Of a stretch of DNA of 64,000 nucleotides, positions 18,533 to 53,936 are shown piece after piece (positions within the stretch are counted from its first letter, which is position 1; each line of letters begins with the position of its first letter). The notes under the pieces are model-generated. The model had not been told where the DNA came from, ran no database searches, and worked only from the letters and a program-made list of their open reading frames with translations. The stretch lies in the NCBI GenBank assembly GCA_963736115.1, contig CAVTNR010000010.1, positions 32,001-96,000 on the forward strand, read 5' to 3'. Both the position numbers and the translations under genes were made by a program. Origin of the DNA: an uncultured bacterium. Lineage in GTDB: Bacteria; Zhuqueibacterota; QNDG01; DTFT01.

Positions 18533-18537
18533 TTTTT

Positions 18538-19752: not shown

Positions 19753-19771
19753 GGGATCCTCCAGTTGGCGC

Positions 19772-20932: not shown

Positions 20933-20962
20933 GTGCGTTCTCCTCTCGTTCGGGACGGCCGC

Positions 20963-24381: not shown

Positions 24382-24389
24382 AGAGTCAT

Positions 24390-24828: not shown

Positions 24829-25215
24829 ATGTCCCAGGCATCGGAACCGAAGAAAATACTGATCATCGATGACAACGCAGCCGTGCGGAGCACCCTGGAA
24901 GCGTTGTTCAAGGAAAGCGGCTACCGGACCGTGAGCGCGGAAAACGGACTGGACGGGCTGTACAAGGCGAAGCAGGAATCGCCGGACATCGTTCTGCTGG
25001 ACATTATGCTTCCCGGCATGGACGGATACCGGGTTTGCCGCATGATCAAGATGGACCAGAACCTGAAGCGCATTCCGGTCGTGATGCTGACGTCCCGCAT
25101 GGGCGAGGAGGACCGGGATAAGGCTTTCGAAAGCGGGGCGGACGGGTTCCTGATCAAGGCCACCCGGGTGGAGATCATCCTTCAGGAAATCCGGGATAAG
25201 CTGGGGCAGAAATAA
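24829..25215 (+). CDS. Single-domain response regulator (receiver), paralog of the upstream gene
   Basis: KILIIDD, LLDIMLPGMDG, LTSRMGEED, GADGFLIK. Confidence 0.9.
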   Translation: MSQASEPKKILIIDDNAAVRSTLEALFKESGYRTVSAENGLDGLYKAKQESPDIVLLDIMLPGMDGYRVCRMIKMDQNLKRIPVVMLTSRMGEEDRDKAFESGADGFLIKATRVEIILQEIRDKLGQK

Positions 25216-31312: not shown

Positions 31313-34300
31313 TTACTTTTTCTTCTTCAGCTCCGCCTTCCGCTTGGCTTCTTTCTTTGCCCGGTATTTGTCGCGCTTAATCTCCATGATCGCGTAAATA
31401 ACCGGCACGACGATAAGCGTGAGGATTGTAGCCACGGTGAGCCCGCCCATGACGGCGCGGGCCATCGGCGCCCAGGTCTCGCCGCTCTCTCCGATGCCCA
31501 ACGCGAGCGGGAGCATGGCGAGAATCGTCGTCAGTGCCGTCATGAGCACCGGCCGCATGCGGGTCAGGCCGGCTTTTTCAATGGCCTCGAACAGCGGCAT
31601 GCCTGAATCGTGGAGCTTGTTCGCGTAATCGACCAGCACGATGCCGTTGTTCACCACGATACCCACGAGCATGACCACGCCGATGAGCACCATAACCGAA
31701 ATCGGCGTCCAGGTCACCAGAAGGCCGAGCGCCACGCCGATGATGGCCATCGGAATCGTAAACATGATGACGAACGGGTCGAGGTACGACTCGAACTGGG
31801 ACGCCATGACCATGTAGCAGAGAATCATGGCGACCAGGAAGGCCAGCCCCAGGTACATGAACGACTTCATCTGCTCTTCGGCCGTGCCGCTGATGTCGAT
31901 GCGGTAATCATTGGGAACCGCCACCTGCTTCAGGGCTTTCTTGACGTCCCGTGAAGCGGCATCCAGGTTCCGGCCGGAGATGTCCACGTTCACGGTGACA
32001 ATGCGTTCCTGCGCCTTACGGTCGATACGCACCGGCGCCCGGTCCACGACGACATCCGCCACGGCCCGGAGGGGAACCTGGCGGCCCGCCGGCGTCATGA
32101 CGAGCAGGTTCTCGACCTGCCGCTGGCTCCGTCTCGCGTCCTCTTCCAGCCGGACGCGCACGTTGTACTCGTCCCCGCCGATCCGATAACGCGTGGCCAC
32201 TGTTCCGAGAATGCTCGTGCTGATCGCCTGCCCGACCATGGAGGTGGACAGTCCGAGATCCGCGATTCGCTGGCGGTCAAGCCGTATTTTCAGCTCGGGC
32301 GTCGCCTTCTCGATGCTGATCTTTGTGTCCGCAACGCCTTTGACGGACGAGATCTTCGCGATCACGTCCGCGGCCAGGGACTCCAGAACCTTCAGTTCGT
32401 GACCGTAAACCTCGATCACCATGTCGCCCTGGCTTCCCATCATCTGTTCACCGCGGTCCGACCATTCCACTTTCACGTCCGGAAGGTTCTTCAGCCGTTC
32501 TCGCAGGTCGTCCTGTATCTGTTTCATGTTCCGATTGCGTTCAGACAGCGGTTTCAGCTTGATCATCACCTCGCCCTGGTTCGAGCCGCTGGACCCGAAA
32601 ATGGCGAATGCGCCCTCCTGCTGTCCGAAATTGTAATAAGTGATCTCGGATTCGGGCACGCGCTCCGCAATGGTCCGGTAAATGAAATCCATGGTGCCGG
32701 CCATCGATTCCAGGCTGGTGCCGGGCGCCCGGTCCACCGTGAACTGCACGTACCCCATGTCGTTCTGGGGCATGAACTCGCCCCCCCGAAAGACAAGAAA
32801 CGCGATGGAGGCGGCAACCGCAACGCCGACGATTGCCAGTACGCGTTTGCGGTGCTGAATCGCCCACCGCAGAATGCGTCTGTAGGATTCATGGAGCCCG
32901 GCGAGCCACTGTTCGATGCGGTCTCCGAGCGCCTCGATCCATTCGAACCGGGAGCGCTCCCGGATGCGCGCCCCGGACAGCAGACGCGACGCGAGCAGAG
33001 GGACGAGCGTGATGGAGACGATCAGGGAAACCGCCAGGGACACAACGATGGTCAGCACCATGTCGTTGAACAGCTCGCCCGCGATGCCCGGCACGAAAAG
33101 CACGGGCACGAACACCACCAGGGTTGTGAGCGTGGACGCGGTGATGGCCATGGCCACCTCGTGCGTGCCCTTCTCCGCCGCGTCGCGCGGCGTTTCCCCC
33201 TCCTCGTTGTGCCGGAAAATAACCTCGAGCACCACGATGGAGTTGTCGACGATCATTCCCACGGCGAGCGCCAGTCCCGCCATGGAGATGATGTTCAGCG
33301 TCAGGCCGATGTAGTCCATTACCGCGAACGTGACCAGCATTGAAACCGGAATGGACACAGCCACGATGAGCGAACTCCGCAGGTTCCGGAGAAAGAACAG
33401 CAGCACCAGAAATGTGAGCAGAATCGCCTGCCAGGCGGAGGAACCGAGATTGGCCATGGACCGGTTGATGAAATCGGCCTGGTCGTACATGATTTTGACG
33501 TCAATGCCCTTGGGCAGTTCGGACTCGATGTCCGGAAGCGCCTTGCGCACCGCCCGGCTCACGGCCACCGTGTTGGCGTCGGATTGTTTCTGCGCCATTA
33601 CGAAAACCGATGGCGTTCCGTCGGTGTACACGCGCTGGCGCTGTTCGGCGAATCCGTCCACCACCTTCGCCACGTCGCGCACACGCACCACGGCGGCGCC
33701 CGATGCCATCACCGGCGTATTCTCGATCTCCGCAAGCGACAGGTATTCGCCGGCCGTCTGGATCGTGTATTCCTGATGCGGATCCTGAATCCATCCGGAG
33801 GCGATCTGCAGGTTGTTCATCTGCAGGGCGCCGAGCACCTGCTGAATCGACACGTTGCGCGCCCGCATGCGGATCGGGTCCGCCTGCACCTGAATTTCCC
33901 TCTGCAGGCCGCCCGACGTGAACGCCGACGCGACCCCGGCGATGCGTTCGAGCCTCGGCTCCAGTTCGTGCTCGGAGATGCGCCGGAGCTCCGCCATGCC
34001 GTGGACCTTGGATTCGAGCGTGAAATAAATGATCGGCATGTCCGACAGGTCGAAGGCGAAAATCATGGGATTACTGACACCCTCGGGAAGCACGTCCTTG
34101 ATGTACTCGAGCGCGTTCCGCACGTCGATCTGGGCCTGGTCCATGTTCGAGCCCCATTCGAACTCGAGCATGACGGCCGCCAGGCCCTGCTGGGACATGG
34201 ACGTCACTTGCTTGACATTCTCGACGGTCCCGACCGTCTCCTCCATGGGCCGGGTGACCACGGTCTCGATGTCGGCCGGACCCACGCCCGTGTACGTCGA

Positions 34301-34444
34301 AATCACGGCGATCATGGGGAATTCGAGGTTCGGGTACAGGTCAAGCTTGAGCCGGATCAGGGAGAACAGGCCGAAACCCGCGGCCATCAGGTAAATCATG
34401 AAGGCCGTGACGCCCCGCCGGACCGATACGCTGGTTAGACTCAT
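31313..34444 (-). CDS. RND efflux permease (AcrB/SwrC-like)
   Basis: GLALAVGMIVDNSIVVLE, ASTLTT.VVF.P, GIVVNNGIVLVD, RMRPVLMTALTTIL. Confidence 0.95.
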   Translation of the reverse strand: MSLTSVSVRRGVTAFMIYLMAAGFGLFSLIRLKLDLYPNLEFPMIAVISTYTGVGPADIETVVTRPMEETVGTVENVKQVTSMSQQGLAAVMLEFEWGSNMDQAQIDVRNALEYIKDVLPEGVSNPMIFAFDLSDMPIIYFTLESKVHGMAELRRISEHELEPRLERIAGVASAFTSGGLQREIQVQADPIRMRARNVSIQQVLGALQMNNLQIASGWIQDPHQEYTIQTAGEYLSLAEIENTPVMASGAAVVRVRDVAKVVDGFAEQRQRVYTDGTPSVFVMAQKQSDANTVAVSRAVRKALPDIESELPKGIDVKIMYDQADFINRSMANLGSSAWQAILLTFLVLLFFLRNLRSSLIVAVSIPVSMLVTFAVMDYIGLTLNIISMAGLALAVGMIVDNSIVVLEVIFRHNEEGETPRDAAEKGTHEVAMAITASTLTTLVVFVPVLFVPGIAGELFNDMVLTIVVSLAVSLIVSITLVPLLASRLLSGARIRERSRFEWIEALGDRIEQWLAGLHESYRRILRWAIQHRKRVLAIVGVAVAASIAFLVFRGGEFMPQNDMGYVQFTVDRAPGTSLESMAGTMDFIYRTIAERVPESEITYYNFGQQEGAFAIFGSSGSNQGEVMIKLKPLSERNRNMKQIQDDLRERLKNLPDVKVEWSDRGEQMMGSQGDMVIEVYGHELKVLESLAADVIAKISSVKGVADTKISIEKATPELKIRLDRQRIADLGLSTSMVGQAISTSILGTVATRYRIGGDEYNVRVRLEEDARRSQRQVENLLVMTPAGRQVPLRAVADVVVDRAPVRIDRKAQERIVTVNVDISGRNLDAASRDVKKALKQVAVPNDYRIDISGTAEEQMKSFMYLGLAFLVAMILCYMVMASQFESYLDPFVIMFTIPMAIIGVALGLLVTWTPISVMVLIGVVMLVGIVVNNGIVLVDYANKLHDSGMPLFEAIEKAGLTRMRPVLMTALTTILAMLPLALGIGESGETWAPMARAVMGGLTVATILTLIVVPVIYAIMEIKRDKYRAKKEAKRKAELKKKK

Positions 34445-34454
34445 CTTCCGCTCC

Positions 34455-35561
34455 TTATCGGACGGCCGCGACGGCCATGCCGTCGCGCAGACTGTTCTGG
34501 CCGGACACCACAATGGTATCGCCTTCGGCGAGGCCGGACCGGACCGCGATGTTCACCTGATTCACGTAATCGACTTCGATGGATTTCTGGATCGCCTTCC
34601 CCGAATCGCTCACGGTGAACACAAAATACTTCTTCACGACGCGTTCTCTTCCATTTTCGGATTCCATGGAGGTGTTCTCGATGGCCGCGTACCGGGGCAC
34701 GGTCAGGGCGTTCTTCAGAACGCCGGTCCGGACCTCGACTTCCGCGAACATGCCGGGCTTGAGCAGGCCGCCCGGATTCGGGGCGATCGCCTCCACCCGC
34801 GCCAGACGGGTCATGGGGTCGAGCACCGGGCTGATCTTCCGAACGCGGCCCTTGAAAACCTTTTCCTGATAGCTTTTCACCCGGATCCCGATCTCCTGGC
34901 CGACCGCCAGCCGGCCGAGATCCTGTTCCGCGGCCTGGAACAGGAGCTTGACCCGATCCATCTGCACGATGCGGACCAGGGGCATGGCCGGATTCGCCAT
35001 GTCGCCCTCGTCGTAATTACGCTCGCCCACCACCCCGGAAATCGGCGCCTTGACCGTGGTCTCGTCGAACTGGTCGCGGACGGAAGCCAGGGCGGCTTCT
35101 GATGCGCGCGACTGGGCCGCGGCCGCCTCGGACTGGGTGCGGATGGCGTCGTACTGCTGTTTGCTCATGGCGTTCTCTTTATACAGGCGCTCAGCCCGGA
35201 GGAACTCGGCGGCCATGTTCGCCTCCTGCGACCTCGCGGCCGCGAGCCCGGCTTCGGCCTGCAGGACCCCCTGTTCCAGGGTCGCGGCGTAGATCTTCGC
35301 CACGGGCGCGCCGGCCGATACGCGGCTTCCGATGTCGACGTAAAACCGCTCGATCCGGTCCGGTATCTTGGCGAACACCTGTACCTCGTTCTCGGCCTCT
35401 ATTTCCCCGGTGTAGGACAGGGATTGGACGACGTCGCCCTTCCCCACCGCGGCGACCTGAACGGGCACCTTGATTTCATCTTCCGCCTTCTTTTTTCCGC
35501 ATCCGGCCAGTGCCAGGGCCAGGCTCAGCAGAAGGGCGGTGGCGATTATGCGCTTTCGCAT
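34455..35561 (-). CDS. RND periplasmic adaptor (MFP) lipoprotein
   Basis: LAG-C lipobox; KAPISGVV, LKPGMF.EV, GL..GD.IV..G. Confidence 0.92.
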   Translation of the reverse strand: MRKRIIATALLLSLALALAGCGKKKAEDEIKVPVQVAAVGKGDVVQSLSYTGEIEAENEVQVFAKIPDRIERFYVDIGSRVSAGAPVAKIYAATLEQGVLQAEAGLAAARSQEANMAAEFLRAERLYKENAMSKQQYDAIRTQSEAAAAQSRASEAALASVRDQFDETTVKAPISGVVGERNYDEGDMANPAMPLVRIVQMDRVKLLFQAAEQDLGRLAVGQEIGIRVKSYQEKVFKGRVRKISPVLDPMTRLARVEAIAPNPGGLLKPGMFAEVEVRTGVLKNALTVPRYAAIENTSMESENGRERVVKKYFVFTVSDSGKAIQKSIEVDYVNQVNIAVRSGLAEGDTIVVSGQNSLRDGMAVAAVR

Positions 35562-35650
35562 GTATTTCTCCTTTATCGTGTTGATCATTGCCCCATTCGA
35601 GTCCCCGAAGGCAGGAACCGGCCCACCGGGCCTCTCAGACGCCGTTCCGC

Positions 35651-37057
35651 TCATTCCAGCACCCCTTTCAGCACGCCCGCCGCTTTCCGAAGTCCGTAAC
35701 GGGCCATCTGGTATTCGTACAGGGATGAAATGGAGTTGAGCCGGGACTGCGTGAGCGCGAGGCGGGCGCCCATCACGTCGAGCTGGGTGCTGGCGCCCTC
35801 CTCGTACATGAGATTCGCCAGACGCATGGCCTCCTCCGCCAGGACCGCGGATTCACCCGCGGCCTGCACCTTCTGTTTCGCCTCCAGGTACTTGTTATAG
35901 GCCATTTCGGTCTCCGCCGTGACGCCGTCGTCCGCCTGCTTCCAGTTGTCCTTCGCGATCTTCACATCCATGCGCGCCTTGTGCCAGCCGTACCAGTTGG
36001 CGCCGCTGTTGAACAGGGGAATCTGCAGGCTGACCGCGGACGTGAATCCCTTGCTGAAATCGTCCTGCGTGAACTTATAATCCGTCCGCATGGCCATGAA
36101 GGAGTAATCGGTCTGAAAGAACACCTTGGGCAGAAAGGCGCTCCGCGCGGCCGTGGCCGCTCCGGCGGCGATGGATTTCTGTCCGCTCAGGGCCTTGTAC
36201 TCCGGCCGGTTCTTGCGCGCGATCATTCTCAGGTCCGTGAGCGACAGGCTGTCCATGGCGTCGCCCGCATACGCGAGCCGGCCTTCGAGCGCGATCGGCG
36301 CGGATTCCGGCAGTCCCATGACCATGCGCAGTCCGGTCAGGGCCGAGAGATAGGCGTTCCCCGCGGAGATCACCTGGGGTTTGAGGTTGGCCACGTCCAC
36401 CTCGGCCCGCATCCGGTCGAATCCCGACGCGTTTCCAGCGTCGTATTTCTTCCGGACCAGGTCGAGATTCGCCTGCGATTGCTCCAGCGCCTGTTCCTGC
36501 ACGGCCTCCACTTCGCGGGCCAGCAGGCAGGCGTAGAACGCGTTGACCGTGCCGTACACGATCGCCTGCTTCCGGGCTTCCAGCCCGCCCTCGGCCGCGC
36601 GCTTCGCTCCGTTCGCGATGCGCACGCCGGCCCATCCCGCGCCACCCAGAAAGACGGGCTGGGTCAGCGCCGCCCCGTATAAAAAGGTGTTGTCCACGCC
36701 GAAGGAGAGCTTGAGGTAATCGGGCATGTCTTCCACGCCGGGCATCACATAGCTGCCGTCCGGGAGCCGCATGGCGGCCTTGATGAAGTTCGGGATGAGG
36801 CTCTCCTGAATCTCCCAGGAATGCTGAAAATTCAGGCTCCCCGTGACCCTGGGCAGGAGCGCCGCAACGGATTCGGCGACGCCTGACTTCGCCTTGGAGA
36901 GTTCCTTCTCCGCGATGCGGATTTCCGGATTCTGTTTCAACGCCGTTTCAACGCTCCGGCCGAGGTCCAGCCGGAGCGTATCCTGGCTGCGCACCGTTCC
37001 GGCCGCGGCGATCCAGATCACGATCACAGCCGTTCCCATGCGTTTCAAACCGCTCAT
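35651..37057 (-). CDS. TolC-family outer membrane efflux protein
   Basis: Two OEP repeats (AL.QNP, LP.V, LTQP.F.GG, L.IPLFNSG, Y.EG..TQLDV). Confidence 0.92.
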   Translation of the reverse strand: MSGLKRMGTAVIVIWIAAAGTVRSQDTLRLDLGRSVETALKQNPEIRIAEKELSKAKSGVAESVAALLPRVTGSLNFQHSWEIQESLIPNFIKAAMRLPDGSYVMPGVEDMPDYLKLSFGVDNTFLYGAALTQPVFLGGAGWAGVRIANGAKRAAEGGLEARKQAIVYGTVNAFYACLLAREVEAVQEQALEQSQANLDLVRKKYDAGNASGFDRMRAEVDVANLKPQVISAGNAYLSALTGLRMVMGLPESAPIALEGRLAYAGDAMDSLSLTDLRMIARKNRPEYKALSGQKSIAAGAATAARSAFLPKVFFQTDYSFMAMRTDYKFTQDDFSKGFTSAVSLQIPLFNSGANWYGWHKARMDVKIAKDNWKQADDGVTAETEMAYNKYLEAKQKVQAAGESAVLAEEAMRLANLMYEEGASTQLDVMGARLALTQSRLNSISSLYEYQMARYGLRKAAGVLKGVLE

Positions 37058-37151
37058 CTTCTCCTCCGTTTGACCATTGTGCATCCGATGCATCCTGTTG
37101 AAGTCCATTCACCCCGGATCCGCGAGCCGGAAATGCCGAATCCCGCGTTCA

Positions 37152-37802
37152 TCAATTTTCCAGGGACCTTTCAACGCCGGAGCCGGTTCCCCGCGCTTCC
37201 CCGGCCTTGGCCGCGGACCGTCCGTCATCCGGGCCGGCCAGAATGCCGTAAAAGAAAAAATTCATGATTTCCAGCAGTAGTTCCCGCCGCGACGCATAAT
37301 GGGCCAGCAGTTTTTCATCCACGACCATCTCCGTCATCCGGTCGATGAAATAGAGAATGAACTCGGGACGGATTTCCGGACGGATGCGGCCTCCGGCCTG
37401 GGCGTCGGCGAAGTCGGACATCCAGGCGTCGCGGTTTTTCCGCATCATGTCCTCCAGCATCGGAACGATTTCCGGATCCGGGCTCCGATACAGATCCTGA
37501 ATAAAATCGTTCCCGATCGTCTCGGACTGCTCCAGCTTGAGACGGATGATGGAACGGATTTTCGCGGGAAAAGGATCCTCTGAATTCATGATTGCGTGAT
37601 GCCGGGCATTCCCGTCTTCGAACAGTCGATGCAGGATGGCCCGAATCAGATCGTTCTTGTCCTTGAAATGTTTGTAGAACGTCATCTTGCTGATGTCTGC
37701 TTCGCGGCATATCTCTTCAATCGAAATCCGGCGCACCCCGTGTTTAAAGAACAGGGTCTGGGCTGTAGAAAATATCTTATCGCGTTTTGGATCAGTTTCC
37801 AT
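37152..37802 (-). CDS. TetR/AcrR-family regulator
   Basis: A..LF.KHG....SIEEIC..A.ISK.TFY.HF..K..L N-terminal HTH; heads the efflux operon. Confidence 0.92.
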   Translation of the reverse strand: METDPKRDKIFSTAQTLFFKHGVRRISIEEICREADISKMTFYKHFKDKNDLIRAILHRLFEDGNARHHAIMNSEDPFPAKIRSIIRLKLEQSETIGNDFIQDLYRSPDPEIVPMLEDMMRKNRDAWMSDFADAQAGGRIRPEIRPEFILYFIDRMTEMVVDEKLLAHYASRRELLLEIMNFFFYGILAGPDDGRSAAKAGEARGTGSGVERSLEN

Positions 37803-38205
37803 GTTTGTCCTGTTTTACGAAAATCGTCTTATAATACTGAATACGTCCAATTATTGATATTTTGTACGGAAGCTAATATAAAAAGTTGCATGTAATTTTC
37901 CAAATCCTCTTTTTGAGATCCTATGCCGATATTGCAATAATAACAAAAGGATAGGTGGATATTGCGAATTATACTAAAATATTCGTTTTTGAAATGGAAT
38001 ATCAGGTCCATTTCCAAATATTTCGAAATCTTCATATATACTTTAAGCCGGTGTTTTAAAGCAGGATGGGATGTGGGGCAAGGCAAGCAGATTCAATAAT
38101 CAGAATAAGATTCTAATGAATGTTTACCTGATATGGGATATTCCTGTCATCAAGGCACAACACTTGCATAAATCATAAGTATTAAAGAAAATAAGGACAC
38201 TTCCC

Positions 38206-40548
38206 ATGAATCGCATTCCGACATTGCGCAATAGTACGCTGGCGGGATTCATCCTTCTGCTTTTGCAAACCGCGATATGCGTCGGTCTCGTCATTTTGAA
38301 CATCGCGAAAGGAACGACCCTTTCCTGGATTCCAGCCGCGGTGATCGGGTTTCTCGGAGCCGCGGCAGCGGCGCTGATCTGGCAATACCGCATCCAACCC
38401 TCGGAATCCCTTATTCAGGCGGGCCGGACACTTCACAGCAATGACCTGAGTCGGCTCACGCAGGCCATCACCGATCTGGGCCAGGGCAATTTTCATGTAC
38501 GCATCGATTCCACGGCAAACAAGCTCCCGGCCGGGACGGATCCGAGATTCGAGGAATTCAAGTCCATACTCAACGACCTCACGGCCGTCATCCACAATGC
38601 GGCCGGCGAGTTCAACGAACTGACGGATGTTCCCTGTCTCAGACTCTGTTATGTGGGGTCCGACTCCTTTCTCGAGGGGCGCCTCTGCGGCGAGGCCATG
38701 GCCGCGGCCATCGGCGGCCGGGGTAAAATCTCCATTTCCACCGCCCGGCTCAGCACGCCGAACCTCCTCCTGCGGAGAAAGGGCTTCATCAGCCTGCTGA
38801 AGGAAAAATATCCGGAGATTGAAATCGTCGATATTCATGAGAACAAACGTGAAGAACAAACCACCCGGGAACAGGCGCTTCGCGTCCTGAACGAATTCAG
38901 GGATCTGGCGGGATTCTACATGACCGAAGCGGAGTCTCCGGCCCGCGTGGCCGGCGTCCTGGAGGAATCGGGTCTTGCGGGAAAGGTGAAAATCGTCGGC
39001 CATGACCTTCTTCAGTCCACCATGGAATTCCTGGACAAGGGCGTGATCACCTCCACGATCAGCCAGGACCCGTATGCCCAGGGCCACGACCCCGTCATCC
39101 ACCTGTTCAACCACATCGTGGCCGGGTGGCAGCCCCCCACGCCCCGCATGCTCACGCGCATGGAGGTGGTGGACCGGTCCAACTACCATCTGCACTGGAA
39201 CCCGCAGACGCGCCAGGTTCTGTCCGGAACGGATCCGACGCGGCTGGCGCGGCCCGTGGACCGGCGGCCGGACAGGCCCCTGCGCCTCGTGTTTGTGGGC
39301 CGTGAAGATTCCGAGTTCTGGGTCCCGCTCAAAATGGGGGCGCTGGCGGCCGCGGAGGAACTGAAACCCTACGGCGTGACCGTGGAATGGCGTCTGCCCA
39401 AGAGTGAATCCGTCAAAGCCAAAACCTCGCACGGGAACCTCGAGGGGACCCGCGAATTCCTGATGCTCGAGGCCCTCATCCGCGAGCGGGTCGACGGCAT
39501 CGTCACCTATCTGCCCGAAGCCCGGCTGGTCAAGATTGTCAACCGGGCCGTGGAATCGGGAATACCCGTGATCACGACCAACGGCGAACCCTTCAACCTC
39601 CGGAGTCTGCTCTACACCGTGAATCACCAGGCGCTGAAACTGCTCGACCTGAGCACGCAGCTTTCCCGGAGCGCATTTGACGTCAGCGAGTCCACGTCCC
39701 GGATCGCGGCGTCCATCGAGCGGATCACGTCCGGCATCGTGTCGCAGGACGATCAGCTGCAGGGAACGGAACAGGAGCTCGGCGTGGTGTCCGACCACAT
39801 CGAACGCATCCACTGGGAAGCGGACCGGAGCGCCCGGAGCGCATCGGACACCTGGAGCCAGGTGGAGACCAGCTCGGGGGCCCTCAAGGAATCCATGGAA
39901 AGCTTCAAGTCCATCGTCACGGACGCGGAGGAGGCCTGGAAAACCGTTCAGGGGCTGGCCGAAACGTCCGAGCGGATCGACTCCGTGATGCAGATGATCG
40001 ACGAAATCGCTTCGCGCGTCAATGTTCTGGCCTTGAACGCCCAGATCGAGGCGACGCGCGCCGGCGAGGCCGGCCGCGGATTCATGGTGGTGTCCAACGA
40101 GATCCGCAGCCTCTCGCGGAATACGACGGCCGCCACTTCGGAGGTTTCGGAGCTGGTGGAACAGATCAAGGACGGCATTGCCGGCGTGCAGGATGCCGTC
40201 TCCCAGGAAATGAACAAGATGCGGGAGTCGTCCGAGGTGACGGACCGGGCCGAAAGCACCATGGGCGTCATCCTGACCTCGCTCGGAGAAAACAAACAGC
40301 GGCTTCTGCGTATCGTGGAGGCCGTCGACCAGGCGCGGAAGTCTTCGGGTCAGGCGCGCGAGAACATGGAACACATGTCGAAACTGAGCGCCCGGAACAC
40401 GGAATCGCTGAAGGAGATCAACGCGACCACTGAGGCGATGACCCGCCGGTTTCAGGACGTCGCGGACATGGCCTCGCTTCTGGAAAAAATCGCGGAAGGC
40501 GAGAAAGGGCTACTGGCGAAGTTCTCGCTGAAGCCGGAGGATAACTGA
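38206..40548 (+). CDS. Methyl-accepting chemotaxis protein with an internal sugar-binding (RbsB-type) domain
   Basis: Two N-terminal TMs, HAMP-like segment, PBP motifs (YVGSD, KIVGHD, ISQDPY.QG, FW....GA..AA.E, GIPVIT.N) and MA tip NVLALNAQIEATRAGEAGRGFMVVSNEIRSLS. Confidence 0.88.
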   Translation: MNRIPTLRNSTLAGFILLLLQTAICVGLVILNIAKGTTLSWIPAAVIGFLGAAAAALIWQYRIQPSESLIQAGRTLHSNDLSRLTQAITDLGQGNFHVRIDSTANKLPAGTDPRFEEFKSILNDLTAVIHNAAGEFNELTDVPCLRLCYVGSDSFLEGRLCGEAMAAAIGGRGKISISTARLSTPNLLLRRKGFISLLKEKYPEIEIVDIHENKREEQTTREQALRVLNEFRDLAGFYMTEAESPARVAGVLEESGLAGKVKIVGHDLLQSTMEFLDKGVITSTISQDPYAQGHDPVIHLFNHIVAGWQPPTPRMLTRMEVVDRSNYHLHWNPQTRQVLSGTDPTRLARPVDRRPDRPLRLVFVGREDSEFWVPLKMGALAAAEELKPYGVTVEWRLPKSESVKAKTSHGNLEGTREFLMLEALIRERVDGIVTYLPEARLVKIVNRAVESGIPVITTNGEPFNLRSLLYTVNHQALKLLDLSTQLSRSAFDVSESTSRIAASIERITSGIVSQDDQLQGTEQELGVVSDHIERIHWEADRSARSASDTWSQVETSSGALKESMESFKSIVTDAEEAWKTVQGLAETSERIDSVMQMIDEIASRVNVLALNAQIEATRAGEAGRGFMVVSNEIRSLSRNTTAATSEVSELVEQIKDGIAGVQDAVSQEMNKMRESSEVTDRAESTMGVILTSLGENKQRLLRIVEAVDQARKSSGQARENMEHMSKLSARNTESLKEINATTEAMTRRFQDVADMASLLEKIAEGEKGLLAKFSLKPEDN

Positions 40549-40598
40549 CCCGTACGATGTGCCGGATGCGGAACAGCGCGTGACATTGCAGAAACGGA

Positions 40599-40692
40599 AG
40601 ACCCGAAAGGTCTGTGAGACCTTTCAGGTCTGATTTTTTACGGGGACGACAGAAACCAAAACCTGAAAAGTCGATCAGACCTTTCAGGTTTT
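40599..40692. repeat. Two AGACC-GAAAGGTCT-type palindromes
   Basis: AGACCCGAAAGGTCT-GTG-AGACCTTTCAGGTCT and AAAACCTGAAAAGTC..GACCTTTCAGGTTTT between convergent genes. Confidence 0.7.
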
Positions 40693-40729
40693 GCGTGTCA
40701 ATCCGGAGCGGGGATCAACGTCCGGAATT

Positions 40730-43505: not shown

Positions 43506-43708
43506 TTGAAGCTCCCCGCCGCCCGCTGCGCGGGACCAAGCTATTATATGCCTTCTGTTTGAAGGCAAGCGGCGGGGAATCTTCTATCTGTAGAGAAAAG
43601 ACATCTTATATTCGCTCGCTTACCCCGGGGCCCGCTGCGCGGGATCAAGCTATTCTATTTTTGAATTGTTGAAGACAAGCCCCGGGGAATGCGCTCGCTG
43701 TCAGATTC
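43506..43708 (+). mobile_element. Non-autonomous two-hairpin element, copy 2 (both hairpins carry the mini-module)
   Basis: Aligns to the reverse complement of 21883-22041 with one extra insertion of about 44 bp. Confidence 0.75.
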
Positions 43709-45968: not shown

Positions 45969-46985
45969 TCAAAATCCGATTCCGACCGTGAATTTCTGGA
46001 TGTCGTTCAGGCGCCCGAATTCGTGATACGCGTAATCGATGGTCAGGCGGACGCCGCGTCCGACGGAATATTGAAGACCCGCGCCGACGCTCAACCCCTC
46101 CTCAGAATCCTCCGCGAAAAGCGACTTGTACCCCGCCCGGATCGACACCATGCGGTCAAAAACGTATTCACAGCCCACGTTGACGCTTTCCACGTCGTCG
46201 TTCGGATGCAGCGCGTCCACCGCCAGGATGAGATTGCTCCTCCCGTATCCCTTCAGCACATCCGCCGAAACGCCGACCCGGAACAGCAGGGGAAGGTCGA
46301 AGGCGTCCGTCTGGAAGTAAGCCGGGATGTTCTCATTGTTCCCTGTGACCGTCGGGTCCGGATCCTTCTGCGTCTGCATGTCCCGTCCGCCCAGCCGCAT
46401 TTTCGTTCCGTAGTTGGTGACGCTCATGCCGATCTTCATGCCGTGAAACTGCGTGTCGAACAGTGCGCCGAAGTCCAGCGCCGCGCCCTTCGCCGCGGAA
46501 TGGTAGATTTTCTCATGGATGAATTTCCCCGACAGGCCGATGGAAAACCGGTCGGTCAGATTCCGGGCATAGGAGAGACCGAACGCGAAACTCCCGGCAC
46601 CGAACATCTCACCGGTGCCGTCCGGCTCCAGTATCGTCGTCCGCTCCATCTCATCCATGGTCTGGAACTGGCCGCTCACGCCGATGGCGCCGATGTTGCC
46701 GAGATTCATCGCCACCGCCGCGTAACTCATGCGGATGTCCGCGAACCACCGGGCGTGGCTGAAAACAGCCTCGTTTCCACTGATCCTCGCCAACCCGGCC
46801 GGATTCCAGTACATGGCCGTGGCGTCCTCGACCACCGAGACGTACGCGCTGCCCATTGCCACGGCCTGCGCGCCCACGTCCACTTTCAGCAGCGGTACCG
46901 CCGTCGTTCCGGCCTTCGTGACCTGTTTCGCCCCGAGTCCGGTTGCCGCGGCGACCGCCAGCAGGATGCACAATCCTTTTCTCAT
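45969..46985 (-). CDS. PorV/PorQ (UPF0164) family outer membrane beta-barrel
   Basis: K.GTT...L...VGA..AMG.A......DA.A.YWNPAGLA; C-terminal IDYAY..FG.L....KF..G.GF. Confidence 0.88.
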   Translation of the reverse strand: MRKGLCILLAVAAATGLGAKQVTKAGTTAVPLLKVDVGAQAVAMGSAYVSVVEDATAMYWNPAGLARISGNEAVFSHARWFADIRMSYAAVAMNLGNIGAIGVSGQFQTMDEMERTTILEPDGTGEMFGAGSFAFGLSYARNLTDRFSIGLSGKFIHEKIYHSAAKGAALDFGALFDTQFHGMKIGMSVTNYGTKMRLGGRDMQTQKDPDPTVTGNNENIPAYFQTDAFDLPLLFRVGVSADVLKGYGRSNLILAVDALHPNDDVESVNVGCEYVFDRMVSIRAGYKSLFAEDSEEGLSVGAGLQYSVGRGVRLTIDYAYHEFGRLNDIQKFTVGIGF

Positions 46986-47052
46986 CGTCCAGTCTCCTTG
47001 GTTGTTTCCTGGAGACGGGGTCCGGTCCGGCCGGAACCCCGTTCCGGACCGC

Positions 47053-50000
47053 TCACTTGATCACCGCGAATTTGCCGATTTTATTTCCCAGTTTGCCCGC
47101 ATCCACGTGGTACACATAGACGCCGAAGGCGATGGACAGCTGGTCCCGGGTCAGCATGTCCCAGATTTCCGTGCCGTCGCTCAGACTGGGCGTGTCATGT
47201 TCGAGGGTGGCCACCAGCTGACCGCTGGAGCTGTAGATCCGGATCGTGCACACGGGCGGCAGGTGGGTGAAATGGATCTGACGTTCCCCACGCCCGTCCG
47301 CGTACGGATTGGTCGGTTCCCAGCCGTTCGCCACGATGTAGGGATTCGGCACAACCCGGATGTCGTCCAGAGAGGCCTTCGCGGCCGGCAGGTCCAGCGC
47401 CTCTCCGTGCATCGTGAATTCGAACACGTCCCGCGACAGGAAGGGTTTGAACATGCGGATGCGGAGCGTGTCGCCCATGCCGGGCTTTCTGCGGGTGTCG
47501 TCGTCCTGGCTGCGCTTCATGGAGACGGACAGCGCGGGCCGGAGTGTGTCGGCCTCGGAGGGATTCAGGATGAGGATTTCGTCCTGCTTGGTCTTCGAGC
47601 GGGAGAACTCCCCGTCACCGCCGTCGGCGTCCAGGAAGCCGAAGGGCAATCGTTCTCCCGAAACGGCGTCCAGAACCAGAAAATTGACATCCTTGGCCGC
47701 CAGCGCCCGTCCTTTCCGGAAGCAGGGAACCGCGGTGTCGAGCACCGCGGCGCTGTCGCCGAAAATGATGTCGATGTCGCGGGAGATCGGGCTTTCCGCC
47801 TCCAGCCGGTAGAAGTACGGCGCCACGCTCGGAACGAATATTTCCGCGTGGTTGTATTTCGTCCGGGCGGTGTCGATCGCGGATTCGGCCTCATTCCGCA
47901 AGGACAGCTCGAATCCATGGATCATGGGGAGTTTGACCTCCAGACCGGCCGGTTTCAGGCGTCCAACTAGAGTGTCGGGAGAGGCGGGATTCGTCACATC
48001 GACGAGACTGAGGTTCCGGGTGTACACGGTGTCCGGCGCGTTCGCGACGACCGTCATGGTGTCCTCGAACGAGACGCGGTAAATATGACCGTCCCGGACC
48101 GCGGCCGGATCGATCAGTTCCAGCGTCACATCGCCCGAGGTGGTGCCGCCGGGCAGGAGATGCGGAATATCGGCGCGGCTGGGCACAAAGCCCGCGGACG
48201 GGGCCTCCGGACGGACCACGACCACATTGGAGCCTTTTTCCATGACCTCGCCGTTCTGACCGATGGAGATGAATTTGGTGCACTCGGTGGGCGGAATCCT
48301 CTTTTCCGCGTCCCCGTGGTCATAGGCGGTGACGGCGTAGTAATACTGGTACCCGTTCACGGCCGTGGTGTCGGTCCAGGAATGCCGGAGTCCGGTGTCA
48401 TTTCCCAGATCAAACAGAATCCCCTTCACATCGACCGTGGCGTACCCGCTGATTCCATTTTTCAGATCAAACTGGGCAACGGGTTTGCGGTAGGCGTAGG
48501 ACCCCTGGCCGTCCGTGATCTGGGCCATGTCTCTCCAGGCCGCGTCCGTGGAGCGGTAGATCCGGTATCCTTCGAAATCCTTTCCCGTGATGGGGTCTTC
48601 CGAATCCTCCGCCCAATCGTCCCAGAACAGCGTGACGCGGTTGTTTCCACGCACCGCCTGAAGGGTCGGAATGTTCGGCGCGCGGGAGAAGTTGTAATTC
48701 TCGGCGTACGCCGTGTTCATCCAATGCTTGTTGACGGTCAGTTCGTCCAATGTAACCGCGAGCACGAGACCCATGGAAAACCTCTCGACTTCGCCCGGGG
48801 CCAGCGGGAAATAGCCGGATCCCCAGAAGAGCTCGACATTGACGTTTTCGAGTCTTCCGTCCAGTTTTCCCGGCCGGCATTTTTCCCATGTGGCCTCATC
48901 GTCATCGTGGGCATACGTCGCCCAATCGTAGAGGTTGAAGCTGGTCAGACCCAGCATGTCCGTTTCGTGGATGTCGGTCTTGTCGAAATGGGGTTCTCCG
49001 GCGGTCGGCCTTCCGTCCTTTTCGCCCGGGTCGCTCGTGAAGGGCGCGCCGTCCTGGCCGAGGTCGTCCAGCGTGACGTCCCAGTCGCCGTCGTTGTCGA
49101 TGCTGTCGTCCCGCTGCTCGTCGATGAGCGGGTTGTCCCGGCCTTCGCCCGTGAAGTAATCGATGTATTTGAGGCCGGTGTACAGGTAACGATGGCTCAC
49201 GTTCGGCGGGGCTCCGAACCGGGTGCCGTTGTTTTCATCGATCAGTCCGTTCAGGTTGTCGTCTATAAGGTTGTTCTCGACTTCCTCGCGCTTATATCCC
49301 GGATAGATCTTGATGACCTGGTCCTCGTAATGGATCAGAAGCGTGTCATCCGGCATGGTCACCTGGGTGCGCCCGAAGGTCCTGTAGTCGATGAGGATGA
49401 TCGGGTCGCCGGCCAACAGCACCTTCGCCCGGAACATCGCCTCGGTGATGACGGGGCCGCTGCCGTTCACGCCGTCGCCGTCATTATCGATGCCGTCCAC
49501 CGGGTTGCCCGGGCTTTCGAGGAACGCGCCCCCGATGTAACCCACGGGCGAATAGCCCCCGCCGCCGATATTGTCATTGTCCCACATGTACGCCATGTCC
49601 TCCGCCAGGTCATAGGCGCCGCAATCATCGCCCGAATCGCCCGCGGTCGACGTATCGCCGATATTGTTGCCGATCTTGTACCCGAAGGCCATTTTATCGT
49701 GATGATAGGTGCCGATGTTCTCAATGTCAAACAGCAGAAACAGGACATTCTGCACCAGCAGGTTGGACCATTGAAAGCTCCGGACCCACATGCGCATGCC
49801 CAGACCCTTCCGGCTGAGGTCGCGGCTGTCCGGGAAGAAGTTGAATTCCTTCTTGTTATAATCATCGGACACGAAAAAAGCCTCTTCGTCCGCGTTCAAC
49901 TGGCCCTTGCCGAAATAGCCGTTCCACTTGCCTCCCCAGCCCGGATCCACCGGGTCGTCCGACCTGTCAGGCCAGTAAGCCGGCCAGGAGGCCGGCCATT

Positions 50001-50463
50001 TGCTCATGGCGAGAGAGTCGCCGGGGTGTTTGGCGAAGCCGGGCAGGGGCAGGAATGTCCACCATTCGCCCGTGACGGGATCGGCGTCTCCCCTGGAATA
50101 ATTGCCGGAACTCGTCGGCAGGGAAGGATCCCCGTTGCTCTGTACCGTGGAATTGATGTGCTTCATTTCGCCGTTGGCGTCGATCACCTCGGAAACCACG
50201 AATTCGTCGCCGTCGATGAGCCACAAATGGCCCGAATTGATCGGCCATTCGCCCGCGATGGCGTCGGACGACCCGCTCGGATGGGACGCGTTGGTTCCGT
50301 AGGTGCCGTCGTTGAAGAAGGTGGTGCGGATCTGATTCCCCGCATGCAAGCCCATTTTCATGTACTGAAAATCGCCGTGCAAACCCTCCATCGCCGATTG
50401 GGCCGACAGCATGGGTGCCAGACCCATGAACAGAATGCCAGCCAGTGCGGATTTAAGTTTCAT
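47053..50463 (-). CDS. Large secreted protein (Ca-binding DxDGD repeats, FN3-like, C-terminal sorting domain)
   Basis: Signal peptide; FLESPG..DGIDNDGDG, DFEGYRIYRS, YYYAVTAYD.G; C-terminal IRVVPNPY...GVY.YHV...GKFAVIK. Confidence 0.8.
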   Translation of the reverse strand: MKLKSALAGILFMGLAPMLSAQSAMEGLHGDFQYMKMGLHAGNQIRTTFFNDGTYGTNASHPSGSSDAIAGEWPINSGHLWLIDGDEFVVSEVIDANGEMKHINSTVQSNGDPSLPTSSGNYSRGDADPVTGEWWTFLPLPGFAKHPGDSLAMSKWPASWPAYWPDRSDDPVDPGWGGKWNGYFGKGQLNADEEAFFVSDDYNKKEFNFFPDSRDLSRKGLGMRMWVRSFQWSNLLVQNVLFLLFDIENIGTYHHDKMAFGYKIGNNIGDTSTAGDSGDDCGAYDLAEDMAYMWDNDNIGGGGYSPVGYIGGAFLESPGNPVDGIDNDGDGVNGSGPVITEAMFRAKVLLAGDPIILIDYRTFGRTQVTMPDDTLLIHYEDQVIKIYPGYKREEVENNLIDDNLNGLIDENNGTRFGAPPNVSHRYLYTGLKYIDYFTGEGRDNPLIDEQRDDSIDNDGDWDVTLDDLGQDGAPFTSDPGEKDGRPTAGEPHFDKTDIHETDMLGLTSFNLYDWATYAHDDDEATWEKCRPGKLDGRLENVNVELFWGSGYFPLAPGEVERFSMGLVLAVTLDELTVNKHWMNTAYAENYNFSRAPNIPTLQAVRGNNRVTLFWDDWAEDSEDPITGKDFEGYRIYRSTDAAWRDMAQITDGQGSYAYRKPVAQFDLKNGISGYATVDVKGILFDLGNDTGLRHSWTDTTAVNGYQYYYAVTAYDHGDAEKRIPPTECTKFISIGQNGEVMEKGSNVVVVRPEAPSAGFVPSRADIPHLLPGGTTSGDVTLELIDPAAVRDGHIYRVSFEDTMTVVANAPDTVYTRNLSLVDVTNPASPDTLVGRLKPAGLEVKLPMIHGFELSLRNEAESAIDTARTKYNHAEIFVPSVAPYFYRLEAESPISRDIDIIFGDSAAVLDTAVPCFRKGRALAAKDVNFLVLDAVSGERLPFGFLDADGGDGEFSRSKTKQDEILILNPSEADTLRPALSVSMKRSQDDDTRRKPGMGDTLRIRMFKPFLSRDVFEFTMHGEALDLPAAKASLDDIRVVPNPYIVANGWEPTNPYADGRGERQIHFTHLPPVCTIRIYSSSGQLVATLEHDTPSLSDGTEIWDMLTRDQLSIAFGVYVYHVDAGKLGNKIGKFAVIK

Positions 50464-50482
50464 GGTCTGCTCCTTGCCCTTG

Positions 50483-53437
50483 TTAAAATCCGACCGACAA
50501 ACCGGCCTGAACCTGGCGCGGCGCCGAATACCAGCTCGGCTGTTTGGCCCATTCCTCAACCGTGCCGATCCGCGAGGCGACGTATCCCTGCTTCTCCGGA
50601 TCGATGGTGGAGGTGACGTCCGCCTTTTCCGTGTCGCCGTATACGCTCAGCGCGTCGCGGAAATCGAGGAGATTGTACACGTTGACGAACGCGTTCATCC
50701 GGAGCTTTCCGACCGTGATCCCGCGGTTCACGGTCAGGTCGATGTTCCGCCGCATGGGCGTGTATTCGCTGTTCTGCAGGAGGCCTTTGGAGGCGGCGCT
50801 GCCGAACACTTCCCCGGAGGGGAACGAGGGGGTATACGGCGTGCCGCTGGTCAACTGCCCGATCGCCGAGAACAGCCACTGCCCGAGCTGATAACGGACC
50901 AGCGCGTTCAGGGTATGCGGCTGGTCGAAGCCCATCGGGATCAGCGCGAGCCGCTTCTGCTCGTGGTTGGCGTAGGCGGTGTAGGCGTCGGTCGGGCTGG
51001 TGTAGGTGCCCTCCGCCTTCTGGTAGGTGTAATCCACCCTCACTGACCAATTCCTGGACATCCGCTTGTCAAGCTTCACCGTGACACCACGGACATTTTC
51101 ATAGTCCAGATTCATGAACATCACGTACTGGACGGCGGGGTTGACCGTCGGCTGGAGCGGTGTCTGGCCGACCCAGTCGCGCACGTCGCGGTAGAACAGC
51201 GATATGTCCACGCCCAGATCGTTCGACAGCTGCTGCTGCAGGCCGATCTCATACTGAACCGTCCGCTGGGGTTTGAGTTCCGCGTTCGACAGGGTGAAGT
51301 TGCCGCCGCCCATGCCCAGCTTGAAGTCGGGGCTGCTGTACAGATACTGGAAATCGGGGATCTGGAAGAAATGACCGTAGGAAAAGTGGATCACGCCGCG
51401 GTCGGTGATGGGGAAAGACAATCCCAGACGCGGGCTGACCGCGTAGCTGGCCTCGGCCTTCTTCTCCATGAGCGCCCTGCGCTCGGCCACGGAGAGCGAA
51501 TCCGTCGTGCCCGGCCGGAAAGTGTGCTCCGGTTTCATGGGCGTGTAAATGCTCGGGTCCGTCGGATCGGCCGGGACCACGCCTTTGGAGTCGAAATAAT
51601 CGAACCGGAGGCCGAGGTTGACGATCAGATCCTTGAGCTCGATCTTGTCCTGGGCATAGGCCGAAAACTCGAAGGGATTCCGGGTGTAGAGCAGCCGCTG
51701 CACGCTCGAAACGCCCGGAACGTCCGGTTCGAACGGGATGACGGCCTCGCTCGTCCCCGGAACGGTTTTGGGCGTGATCGTGTAGGAATCGAGCGTCAAC
51801 TCATGAAACCGGGCCTCGACGCCCGACTTGATCTGGTGGACCCGGTTGATCTGGCTGGTCAGGTCCAATTTTCCGACCCAGTAAGCGGTGCTCCGCTCGT
51901 AATGGTTCATCAGATTGCCGCTTTTATTGAAACTGTAGCTGGTCGGCGCCGAATTGGAATCGGGGCTGACGTACCCGCTCGGGCCGGCTGGATCAGGGAT
52001 AAAATCGTAAGTCCGCCTGTCGGACCGGATGGCCTGTAACCGGGCCTGGCCTTCAGCCGTGTTCGGATCGAATTCGAAACCCGTCAAACCGGCATCGGCA
52101 TCGGGATACACGCGAACGAAGTAATTCGGCTTCGTGGTGGGATCCTCAAAGAGGAATTGCCTGTATTCGTTGTAGAAATGGTTGACCCGCAGTTCATAAA
52201 AAGTTTTAGCCGAGAGCATGTGGTTCAGCTCCAGGATGTGCGTCAAGCCGGTACCCTTCTGCTGGGGGATGCCGTCCGGCGCATAGGTGTACGCCTTGTT
52301 GTAAATCCGGTCATTGTTCCAGCGGTTCCCGAACACGTTGTATTTGACGGTGATGTTCCGGCTGAGCCGGTAGACCAGTTTCCCCTGGAGGCTGACCCGC
52401 TCGTAGGGATTCATGGAGACGAGCGAACTGTCTCCGGCTGTGCCGGCCGGCGTGAACCACTTCCGGCCGTAGAGATATCCCTCGTTCGAAAAGAAGCGGC
52501 CGTTGACGAAAAACGACAGTTTGTCCCCGGCGAAGGGAACCGGACCATTCAGGTTGGCTTCGAAATTATAAACGGGATTGAAACGCTTCAGCGGATTTTC
52601 CGTCACGCCGTCCGCGCGCAGGACACCCCGCGCGTCGGAAACGACGTTGACCCGCTTCAACAGGGAGAATTGTTCGCCGCCGCCGAGATAGTCCCCCACG
52701 TATCCGCTCACGTCCCCCGTCAGCTTGTTCCCGCCCTCCTTGGTGATGACCTTCACGATGCCGGACATGGCCTGCCCGTACTCGGCGTTGAACGTGCCGC
52801 TGACCACCTGCAGCTCCTGGATAGCCGAATTTTCGACCGTGACGCCGCTCGATCCGTTGAACACGTCCGTGGTGGATACGCCGTCCACCCAGTACGCGAT
52901 CTCGCTCGAACGGCCGCCGCGGATATGCACCTGTCCGCCGGTTCTCACGACACCGGCCTGCAGCGCCAGAATGTCCTCCATGCTCTGCACGGGCAGGTCC
53001 CGGATCTCATCGGCACCCACGCTGGACAGCGACGACGTCATGTCTTTCCGGACCAGGGGCCGTTCGGCCGTTACCGTGACCGCCTCTCCGGATTCAATCA
53101 CCGCAGGCGATAGTTCAGCGTCGCAGGCCGCGGTCATGTCGATGGACACCCGGAGATCCTCGGTCACCCGGGTCTGATACCCCATCATGCTGATCCGGAC
53201 GCTGACCATGCCGGGCGGCACGTTGAGGATCATGTAATAGCCGTCCATGTCGGTCACCGCGCCGGCGGAAGTGCCGACGACCAGCACGTTGGCTCCGATC
53301 AACGGCTGCCGGGTGGAGCGGTCGACCACGGTGCCCGCGATCTTGCCGGTGGTGCCCGCGGCCAGACGGCCCGCGACCGAGATCAGGCAGACCCCGAGGA
53401 TCGCCGCAACAATCCGGAGCTGGCGGTTACGCTTCAT
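50483..53437 (-). CDS. TonB-dependent receptor with N-terminal carboxypeptidase-regulatory-like domain
   Basis: GKIAG.V.D....PL.GANV, plug IRGGR..E..Y.VDG, GTFNAEYG.A.SG.V; terminal PR.V..G.S..F. Confidence 0.93.
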   Translation of the reverse strand: MKRNRQLRIVAAILGVCLISVAGRLAAGTTGKIAGTVVDRSTRQPLIGANVLVVGTSAGAVTDMDGYYMILNVPPGMVSVRISMMGYQTRVTEDLRVSIDMTAACDAELSPAVIESGEAVTVTAERPLVRKDMTSSLSSVGADEIRDLPVQSMEDILALQAGVVRTGGQVHIRGGRSSEIAYWVDGVSTTDVFNGSSGVTVENSAIQELQVVSGTFNAEYGQAMSGIVKVITKEGGNKLTGDVSGYVGDYLGGGEQFSLLKRVNVVSDARGVLRADGVTENPLKRFNPVYNFEANLNGPVPFAGDKLSFFVNGRFFSNEGYLYGRKWFTPAGTAGDSSLVSMNPYERVSLQGKLVYRLSRNITVKYNVFGNRWNNDRIYNKAYTYAPDGIPQQKGTGLTHILELNHMLSAKTFYELRVNHFYNEYRQFLFEDPTTKPNYFVRVYPDADAGLTGFEFDPNTAEGQARLQAIRSDRRTYDFIPDPAGPSGYVSPDSNSAPTSYSFNKSGNLMNHYERSTAYWVGKLDLTSQINRVHQIKSGVEARFHELTLDSYTITPKTVPGTSEAVIPFEPDVPGVSSVQRLLYTRNPFEFSAYAQDKIELKDLIVNLGLRFDYFDSKGVVPADPTDPSIYTPMKPEHTFRPGTTDSLSVAERRALMEKKAEASYAVSPRLGLSFPITDRGVIHFSYGHFFQIPDFQYLYSSPDFKLGMGGGNFTLSNAELKPQRTVQYEIGLQQQLSNDLGVDISLFYRDVRDWVGQTPLQPTVNPAVQYVMFMNLDYENVRGVTVKLDKRMSRNWSVRVDYTYQKAEGTYTSPTDAYTAYANHEQKRLALIPMGFDQPHTLNALVRYQLGQWLFSAIGQLTSGTPYTPSFPSGEVFGSAASKGLLQNSEYTPMRRNIDLTVNRGITVGKLRMNAFVNVYNLLDFRDALSVYGDTEKADVTSTIDPEKQGYVASRIGTVEEWAKQPSWYSAPRQVQAGLSVGF

Positions 53438-53936
53438 AGCCTGACTCCTCTGCTTTAAGGTGTTTGGCATAACGCACTGGTTCAGAAAAATGCATGGAAT
53501 CCGGAAATCGGATTCTTCGAGAACGCGATTTTTTTCGAATGAGACACACGAGGGAGGAAACCACTTCCACTCAACGGGACCGTATCAGGCCGGCCATTCG
53601 TTCCGACAGGCGGGTCCATCAGGGAAGACCGCCCGCCGTCCGGAATCAGTCAGCGGGAAAACCCGCGTTTTCCGCAATCGCCTCCGGATTCCGTTCACTT
53701 CCGCGGATGAAGCGGATCAGAAACGAAACAGCGGCGCACGTCACAAATGACTGATTCGTACGCCGCTGTTCCGTTTCATCGGCTTGTTCCACCCGGGTTC
53801 TCGGGCGGTATGCCGGACCGCGATCCGCACGGCCCAATGGATTTGACCGAAACCTCGAACCGTCCGCGATAGCGGTTTCCCGGTCACCCGGCCAGCCACT
53901 TGTGACGCACTTCGAAGGTGCGTCGCAAGCAGATGC

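Follow-up and report, generated by a model that had tools for sequence, protein, structure and literature searches.

A chemoreceptor with a putative circularly permuted sugar-binding domain inserted into its cytoplasmic stalk

We analysed a 64,000-nucleotide stretch (the window) of contig CAVTNR010000010.1, assembly GCA_963736115.1, from an uncultured bacterium of the Zhuqueibacterota, and in particular one gene at positions 38206..40548. This gene, which like all of its features lies on the plus strand, was delineated from its open reading frame (ORF), Pfam matches and a structural model. It encodes a 780-residue protein with two transmembrane segments (TMs), a HAMP-like region, a permuted sugar-binding domain and the signalling domain of a methyl-accepting chemotaxis protein (MCP). 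An earlier note on this DNA (the original prediction) had described a chemoreceptor with a permuted sugar-binding protein inside its cytoplasmic stalk; sequence order, a single predicted fold and predicted topology all agree with that description.

A Kyte-Doolittle hydropathy scan, rather than a dedicated topology predictor, gave only two hydrophobic segments above threshold, both also seen in the model: TM1 (aa 12-30, 38239..38295), a helix there, and TM2 (aa 40-58, 38323..38379). The loop between them has nine residues, as short as had been claimed, and the protein has no periplasmic sensor domain. The extended HAMP-like region (aa 62-140, 38389..38625), defined by the model and a family profile, comprises a helix, a connector and a second helix running to F136-N137-x-L-T140. 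Its Pfam HAMP score is sub-threshold (11.7 bits against a cut-off of 25, E 0.35); the model shows the helix-connector-helix arrangement, and the family profile matches an uninterrupted MCP of locus L015 with E 3.7e-14. According to alignments and the model, the first part of the insert (aa 141-331, 38626..39198) contributes strand 5, the hinge and the C-lobe; in canonical class I binding proteins this portion makes up the C-terminal two-thirds. It holds R190, E212, T240, D267 and Q287. A linker (aa 332-356, 39199..39273), recognised by comparing the arms by eye, leads from the old C-terminus to the old N-terminus. The second part (aa 357-462, 39274..39591), placed by alignments, model and NCBIfam, supplies N-lobe strands 1-4, the normally N-terminal third, and holds F371, W372, N459, E461 and P462. 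The binding-protein region, previously put at aa ~146-462 (nt ~38641-39591), is thereby refined to aa 141-462 (nt 38626-39591). Finally, the MCP signalling hairpin (aa 463-773, 39592..40524), identified by Pfam and by its tip and arm lengths, has E621 at its tip and about 44 heptads, which we take to be the 44-heptad (44H) class. The Pfam MCPsignal match covers aa 575-727 with 104.6 bits against a curated cut-off of 34.6.

Matches to the binding-protein fold were found in inverted order. Peripla_BP_4 scored 129 bits in Pfam against a cut-off of 35.1, not as one colinear match but as two stretches, the best of which aligns aa 144-295 with profile positions 93-245. Against solved structures, aa 140-313 correspond to chain residues 120-292 of GanP (6gq0; 79 bits) and aa 361-459 to residues 33-119 (17.5 bits, weak by itself), and the same inversion was seen against Thermotoga maritima GBP (tmGBP, 2h3h). 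With the two halves of P0086, a closer canonical protein, as queries, both matches were clear and the C-terminal half again came first (aa 146-334, 136 bits; aa 357-461, 46 bits), and positions 3-90 of the NCBIfam model rhzpin_SBP match aa 361-459. While these matches bear out the reversed order of the halves, RbsB, the type originally named, gives way to tmGBP, GanP, XylFII, AraP and CbpD as the nearest solved relatives.

The two halves are complementary and were modelled with confidence as one domain. The full-length model had a predicted local distance difference test score (pLDDT) of 75.5 overall, with most of the insert above 85. A model of aa 60-515, built from 145 aligned sequences, reached a pLDDT of 93.6 (91.7-93.6 over five models) and a predicted template modelling score of 0.90; a homodimer prediction of the same segment scored 0.00 and counts neither way. 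When the aa 60-515 model was compared with 48,161 solved chains (50 matches listed), the top canonical binding proteins placed about 185 residues of their C-terminal two-thirds on model positions 84-280 (Z 24-26, root mean square deviation (rmsd) 1.5-2 Å). Among the 50 matches listed, only TpMglB-2 (6bgc) exceeded 250 aligned residues, spanning both halves (model 75-391, 279 residues, Z 22.2, rmsd 3.2, 14% identity); 2rjo and 5er3 also extended into the last part of the model, with 204 and 239 residues. Internal pseudo-symmetry of the two lobes was considered as the cause of the inversion and rejected, 5er3 having given one weak stretch and the halves fitting their true counterparts far better. 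In the model, the four strands after the linker (aa 359-364, 391-396, 431-434 and 455-458) result in the N-lobe order 4-3-5-6-1-2. The canonical class I order, 2-1-3-4-5-6 in the part of PMC4990184 used here, is not kept, and the halves are inverted. The cut is the loop between N-lobe strands 4 and 5, replaced there by the receptor stalk. The new termini had been predicted near the first hinge crossing; this is corrected in that the insert lies at the HAMP exit and its two ends belong to a single lobe.

The same arrangement recurs in many relatives. A first search returned 227 matches, 120 of them listed; 119 of these 120, together with the query, read HAMP, C-terminal half, N-terminal half, MCP, the exception being P0086, a canonical tandem binding protein. 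We then surveyed the family through the best 150 representatives at 50% identity. The permuted insert was combined with an MCP tip in 105 and with another output in 5, and 17 more were permuted but truncated sequences; the rest ended after the C-terminal half (10) or were canonical (10) or tandem canonical (3). Instead of an MCP domain, P0162 has a hybrid histidine kinase carrying receiver and AraC domains, P0194 a GGDEF domain and P0141 a SpoIIE phosphatase; the membrane-anchored P0174 and P0177 have AraC alone, possibly making these two one-component systems. These non-MCP proteins keep after the insert a helix resembling the start of the MCP arm, and P0153 carries MASE11 and PAS upstream of its MCP domain. 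Judged by sequence, the module of TMs, HAMP, insert and following helix is reused with other outputs. A complete stand-alone permutant was absent from the 120 listed short matches of 126 (112 canonical, 8 fragments), and the search found no fusions above 1365 aa, which is weak evidence. Matches in the ESM Atlas scored at most 0.80 and serve as leads only. Source names of the relatives include KSB1, Acidobacteria, Anaerolineales, Marinimicrobia, Kryptonia and Limnocylindrales.

It might be objected that the insert consists of two truncated domains with no relation to each other, or results from faulty assembly: metagenome contigs are the source of many relatives, and the N-terminal half by itself matches solved structures only weakly. 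However, both halves stand in permuted order in 127 of the 150 representatives, they are complementary and fold as one domain in the model, and the G+C content at third codon positions is similar in the insert (0.80) and the signalling domain (0.85). This explanation is barely conceivable, and we are nearly certain that a permuted binding domain has been inserted into the receptor.

Across 226 permuted proteins, hydropathy predicted two TMs in 151, one in 52, none in 22 (some of them shortened or mis-scored) and five in one. In the 151 two-TM relatives the TM1-TM2 loop has a median of 12 and a maximum of 27 residues, and lysine plus arginine average 2.7 before TM1, 1.0 in the loop and 2.9 after TM2. 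No hydrophobic segment occurs within 120 aa after the insert in any of the 226. Because there is no later hydrophobic segment, because of the charge pattern and because cytoplasmic outputs follow directly, the insert is predicted to be cytoplasmic, as first proposed. A binding domain outside the cytoplasm would suit the closest canonical relatives, which are mostly binding proteins with a signal peptide or lipoproteins, as well as the 52 of 226 proteins with only one TM above threshold. Yet such a placement is hard to reconcile with kinase, GGDEF, SpoIIE or AraC outputs directly after the insert and with the absence, in 226 of 226 proteins, of any hydrophobic segment separating the insert from the signalling domain; we regard it as very improbable.

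The insert interrupts the HAMP-exit motif, which breaks off at T140 and resumes at F463. F136-N137-x-L-T140 closes the helix before the insert and F463-N464-L465 opens the helix after it; joined, they give the usual HAMP-exit spacing, and the uninterrupted L015 MCP has the same extended HAMP and runs straight through the insertion point. Without aa 141-462 the distances are 163 residues from F136 to the tip and 152 from the tip to the terminal Phe, as in six of nine uninterrupted MCPs that could be measured by pattern among 79 loci. Such identical arm lengths argue for a clean insertion and an intact signalling domain, the hairpin tip of which (aa 596-644) is near the family consensus. A gap-free junction test (7/7) was discarded, because coiled coils align without gaps anywhere and several rows were one heptad off. 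The alignments and the model show the insert to be a natural circular permutation of a class I sugar-binding lipoprotein gene, inserted without loss of host residues. From the insert end to the tip, the 105 permuted MCP representatives span 159 residues (60 proteins), 187 (26), 162 (13) or other distances (6), the 187 class being four heptads longer than the 159 class. The 162-residue class (13 of 105) presents a three-residue helical phase shift relative to 159.

A tree of the halves arranged in canonical order separated 72 permuted rows from 30 canonical rows with a Shimodaira-Hasegawa-like approximate likelihood ratio (SH-aLRT) of 99; an earlier tree, which included 12 canonical rows, gave this branch 97. 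The trees are from a quick search with no bootstrap and no approximately unbiased test, and the permuted rows had been thinned to below 47% identity, 12 of them retained by choice. Four of the five non-MCP proteins, all but P0141, which was left out, were nested within the permuted group. The tree fits a single origin, provided that the root lies among the canonical proteins. The nearest canonical group, weakly supported (63-79), consists of exported binding proteins, and the linker is similar at its two ends to the C-terminal tail and the N-terminal arm of these proteins; compared by eye, it is the second half of the linker that is similar to the arm of the closest canonical ones. P0086, P0123 and probably P0290, all from this group, contain tandem copies. 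Duplication is an available route to permutation, though tandem copies do not prove its use. P0086 was rejected as an ancestral duplication intermediate, since its two copies are 97% identical and so represent a recent or an assembly duplicate. There is, in our estimate, an even chance that a portable module was grafted once into a HAMP-output coiled coil as a natural insertion switch for an intracellular monosaccharide, and was since reused in chemoreceptors of two length classes, a hybrid kinase, a diguanylate cyclase, SpoIIE and AraC proteins.

The binding pocket is strongly conserved. Among 231 permuted proteins, R190 is kept in 99%, D267 in 97%, N459 in 88%, Q287 and F371 in 87% each and W372 and E212 in 81% each, all being present in this protein; the core residues R190, D267, Q287, N459, F371 and W372 are conserved to the degree seen in canonical relatives. 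Their tmGBP counterparts in the alignment are R141, D89, Y14 and W15 plus the Asp and Gln of later pocket loops, positions taken to contact the sugar. This assignment of pocket contacts agrees with the MglB table of PMC4990184. At the junction, R146 and E461 are kept in 97% each and P462, which is specific to the permuted family, in 84%. In a crude covariation scan run with no control, many top pairs of which are noise, Q287-N459, spanning both halves, was the second-highest pair. Conservation supports a retained monosaccharide-type pocket, and in the portion of PMC10443332 consulted, monosaccharides and AI-2 are the only ligands of Peripla_BP_4 proteins with solved structures. The nearest structures are annotated with glucose, xylose, galactose and arabinose as ligands.

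With the same architecture, the insert might instead sense AI-2, a polyol, a sugar phosphate or a metal or thiol-redox signal, or be free of ligand, input then coming through TM and HAMP from a partner protein. C144, C148, C161, H266, H299 and W308 were gained in the family and are absent from 17 close canonical relatives, specificity positions vary widely, and most members retain HAMP and two TMs. Against this, conservation of the core pocket equals that in canonical relatives, the cysteines are present in only 53-62% of 72 divergent members, and membrane input seems dispensable in view of the 22 of 226 proteins with no predicted TM (some shortened or mis-scored). We rate this possibility as somewhat unlikely. 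The Cys and His residues gained at aa 144, 148, 161 and 266 are encoded at window positions 38635-38688 and 39001-39003.

The reading we prefer is that of a membrane-anchored chemoreceptor of the 44-heptad type whose sensor lies inside the cell. It is likely, from sequence and model, that a cytoplasmic monosaccharide is bound between the lobes. N459, the last residue of strand 4, would line the pocket; the stalk resumes four residues on, after the turn at E461-P462 that leads to the signalling helix. R146 would connect through strand 5 to the first hinge. Since both new ends lie on neighbouring strands of the N-lobe, closure cannot pull them apart directly; the coupling of clamshell closure to the signalling helix, as originally proposed, would have to be indirect. 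Given binding, we think it fairly probable that closure shifts strand 4 against strand 5 and the hinge, or else that the two N-lobes repack across the dimer axis in a LacI-like manner, in either case moving the downstream helix, which would be twisted or shifted. The route of coupling is a conjecture drawn from the model. Docking of CheA and CheW is expected from the conserved tip, and the tip very probably sets CheA activity through CheW. The cell would thus steer, or drive another chemosensory output, by sugar already imported or freed from glycans.

On balance, we consider it rather probable that this is a permuted intracellular sugar sensor driving chemoreceptor output, an assessment resting on sequence and model. 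Several observations weigh against it. Y190 of tmGBP, a stacking residue in the section of PMC9601137 consulted, aligns with the non-aromatic T240/E241, and the K9 position is variable (R in 43%). CbpD, the top structural match, bound none of the sugars tried on it (same paper, same limited portion). As both new ends are on one lobe, a simple pull mechanism fails. Three of the four non-MCP output types are known from one sequence each, and P0141 has a gap of about 30 residues in its insert that includes the conserved-Arg stretch, possibly through mis-assembly or decay. A genome scan found the permuted insert in 0 of 79 loci, although it was dominated by the generic MCP tip pattern. The strict methylation consensus has no match in the 780-aa protein and is likewise missing from 80 of 171 relatives; adaptation may therefore be weak or rely on different sites. 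Among the 71 window ORFs scanned (40 + 31) there is, as the original prediction had noted of che genes, no cheA, cheW, cheR or cheB and no second MCP.

The last two points also bear on whether the protein, though a sugar sensor, is here an orphan or feeds a non-motility chemosensory pathway that does without methylation adaptation. This proposal draws on the missing che genes among the 71 ORFs and on positions 736-737 and 743-744, where family members commonly have Glu pairs and this protein has K-E and E-A. The hairpin tip is nevertheless near the family consensus, and MCP genes often lie far from che operons. One relative is named as coming from KSB1, and, in the part of PMC9012183 on which we rely, flagella and chemotaxis genes are reported only for KSB1 clades II and IV, in keeping with an orphan. 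We regard this possibility as quite unlikely.

In the window, the receptor gene is divergent from a TetR-RND efflux operon (31313-37802, minus strand: TetR, outer-membrane factor, membrane-fusion protein and RND pump). The divergent intergenic region contains a sigma-70-like promoter match (37913..37941, +; 10/12, a consensus match only), one of four promoter-like matches found against 1.1 expected. On its other side the gene is convergent with a GH3 gene that adjoins genes for a pectate lyase, an arabinofuranosidase-like protein, an esterase, CBM6 and a TonB-dependent receptor. The adjacency to a glycan-degradation cluster that had been noted is thus real, but because the genes are convergent they are not co-transcribed, and the link to glycan use is one of adjacency only. 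The gap between them holds two related 32-nt palindromic hairpins, 60 nt apart (40598..40693, no strand assigned), which are candidate terminators. Upstream of the GH3 gene are two imperfect repeat pairs with about 109 nt spacing (43514-43701), and consecutive genes at 45969-53470 (minus strand), beside glycan genes with type IX secretion system (T9SS)-type tails, encode a TonB-dependent receptor, a protein of 1168 aa unmatched in Pfam and a PorV-like barrel. Two tandem single-domain response regulators (24306-24797 and 24829-25215, plus strand) lie 13 kb away; both follow an HI0933-like flavoprotein gene, carry K-A after strand 5, where K-P is usual, and score better with PleD/PhoB than with CheY. 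Also in the window are an AbiEi/AbiEii type IV toxin-antitoxin pair (3130-4736, minus strand) and genes for CsgG-like, TPR-SLH and LPP20 lipoprotein products (17473-21859, minus strand).

Chemoreceptors usually sense sugars outside the cell, whether they bind them themselves or rely on a separate binding protein. In this receptor a rearranged binding protein forms part of the cytoplasmic stalk, as in engineered insertion switches. Automatic annotation hides the permutation, since Pfam gives just 'Peripla_BP_4 + MCPsignal'. If our reading is true, many uncultured bacteria possess a new sensor-domain family and steer directly by an internal sugar, and the protein offers a clean test of how a signal passes across a broken HAMP-output helix as well as a ready input module, predicted to be soluble, for synthetic kinases or cyclases. 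Searches of an open-access literature collection, most hits of which were judged by title and the opening of the abstract, gave no description of this architecture, although supplementary domain lists (e.g. PMC8547431, consulted in part) may include Peripla_BP_4 chemoreceptors; the protein is probably, from its sequence and model, an undescribed intracellular sugar sensor.

Each component has known counterparts. The 44H-type Bacillota MCPs have the same 163/152 arms as this receptor once its insert is taken out, and a conserved tip, whereas this receptor has no extracellular sensor domain, no strict methylation consensus and a 322-aa insert at the HAMP exit. The closest solved relatives, tmGBP (2h3h), GanP (6gq0), XylFII (5xss), AraP (6sw4) and CbpD (7x0p), share the aligned core pocket but are separate extracytoplasmic proteins of canonical order; XylFII passes on its signal when it docks to the kinase LytS, a sensor (PMC8050422). 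Class I folds also act as sensors in the hybrid two-component protein BT1754 (2x7x, one of the solved structures matched here; canonical and, by its PDB title, periplasmic) and, in canonical order after an N-terminal helix-turn-helix (HTH), in LacI-family regulators, neither being inserted into a coiled coil. LacI-type relatives P0237 and P0260 were among the family search matches; a Pfam scan of this protein gave no HTH match. The STAC domain of CbrA/CrbS, described in the passages of PMC5715377 used here as cytoplasmic, tied to SLC5 transporters and found with varied outputs (kinase, GGDEF), likewise stands between a membrane part and outputs, but is a four-helix bundle of unrelated fold and unknown role. 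In TpMglB-2 (Tp0684, Type Ic; 5jx2, 6bgc), as in the insert, the first N-lobe strands have moved to the C-terminus, and PMC4990184 reports that it binds glucose and closes despite the permutation. In TpMglB-2, however, three strands moved, giving the order 5-4-6-1-2-3, whereas in the insert four moved, the cut lying one strand later, and TpMglB-2 is a free lipoprotein of an ATP-binding cassette (ABC) system rather than a cytoplasmic insert. The two permutations are most likely independent events; the insert works like Type Ic but is not a member of it. In conclusion, the protein is an MCP with a new sensor-domain variant, derived from Peripla_BP_4 but not a canonical member. MCPs, class I folds as sensors and one natural permutant were known; what appears to be new is a permuted insert set in register in a HAMP-output helix, with five output types.

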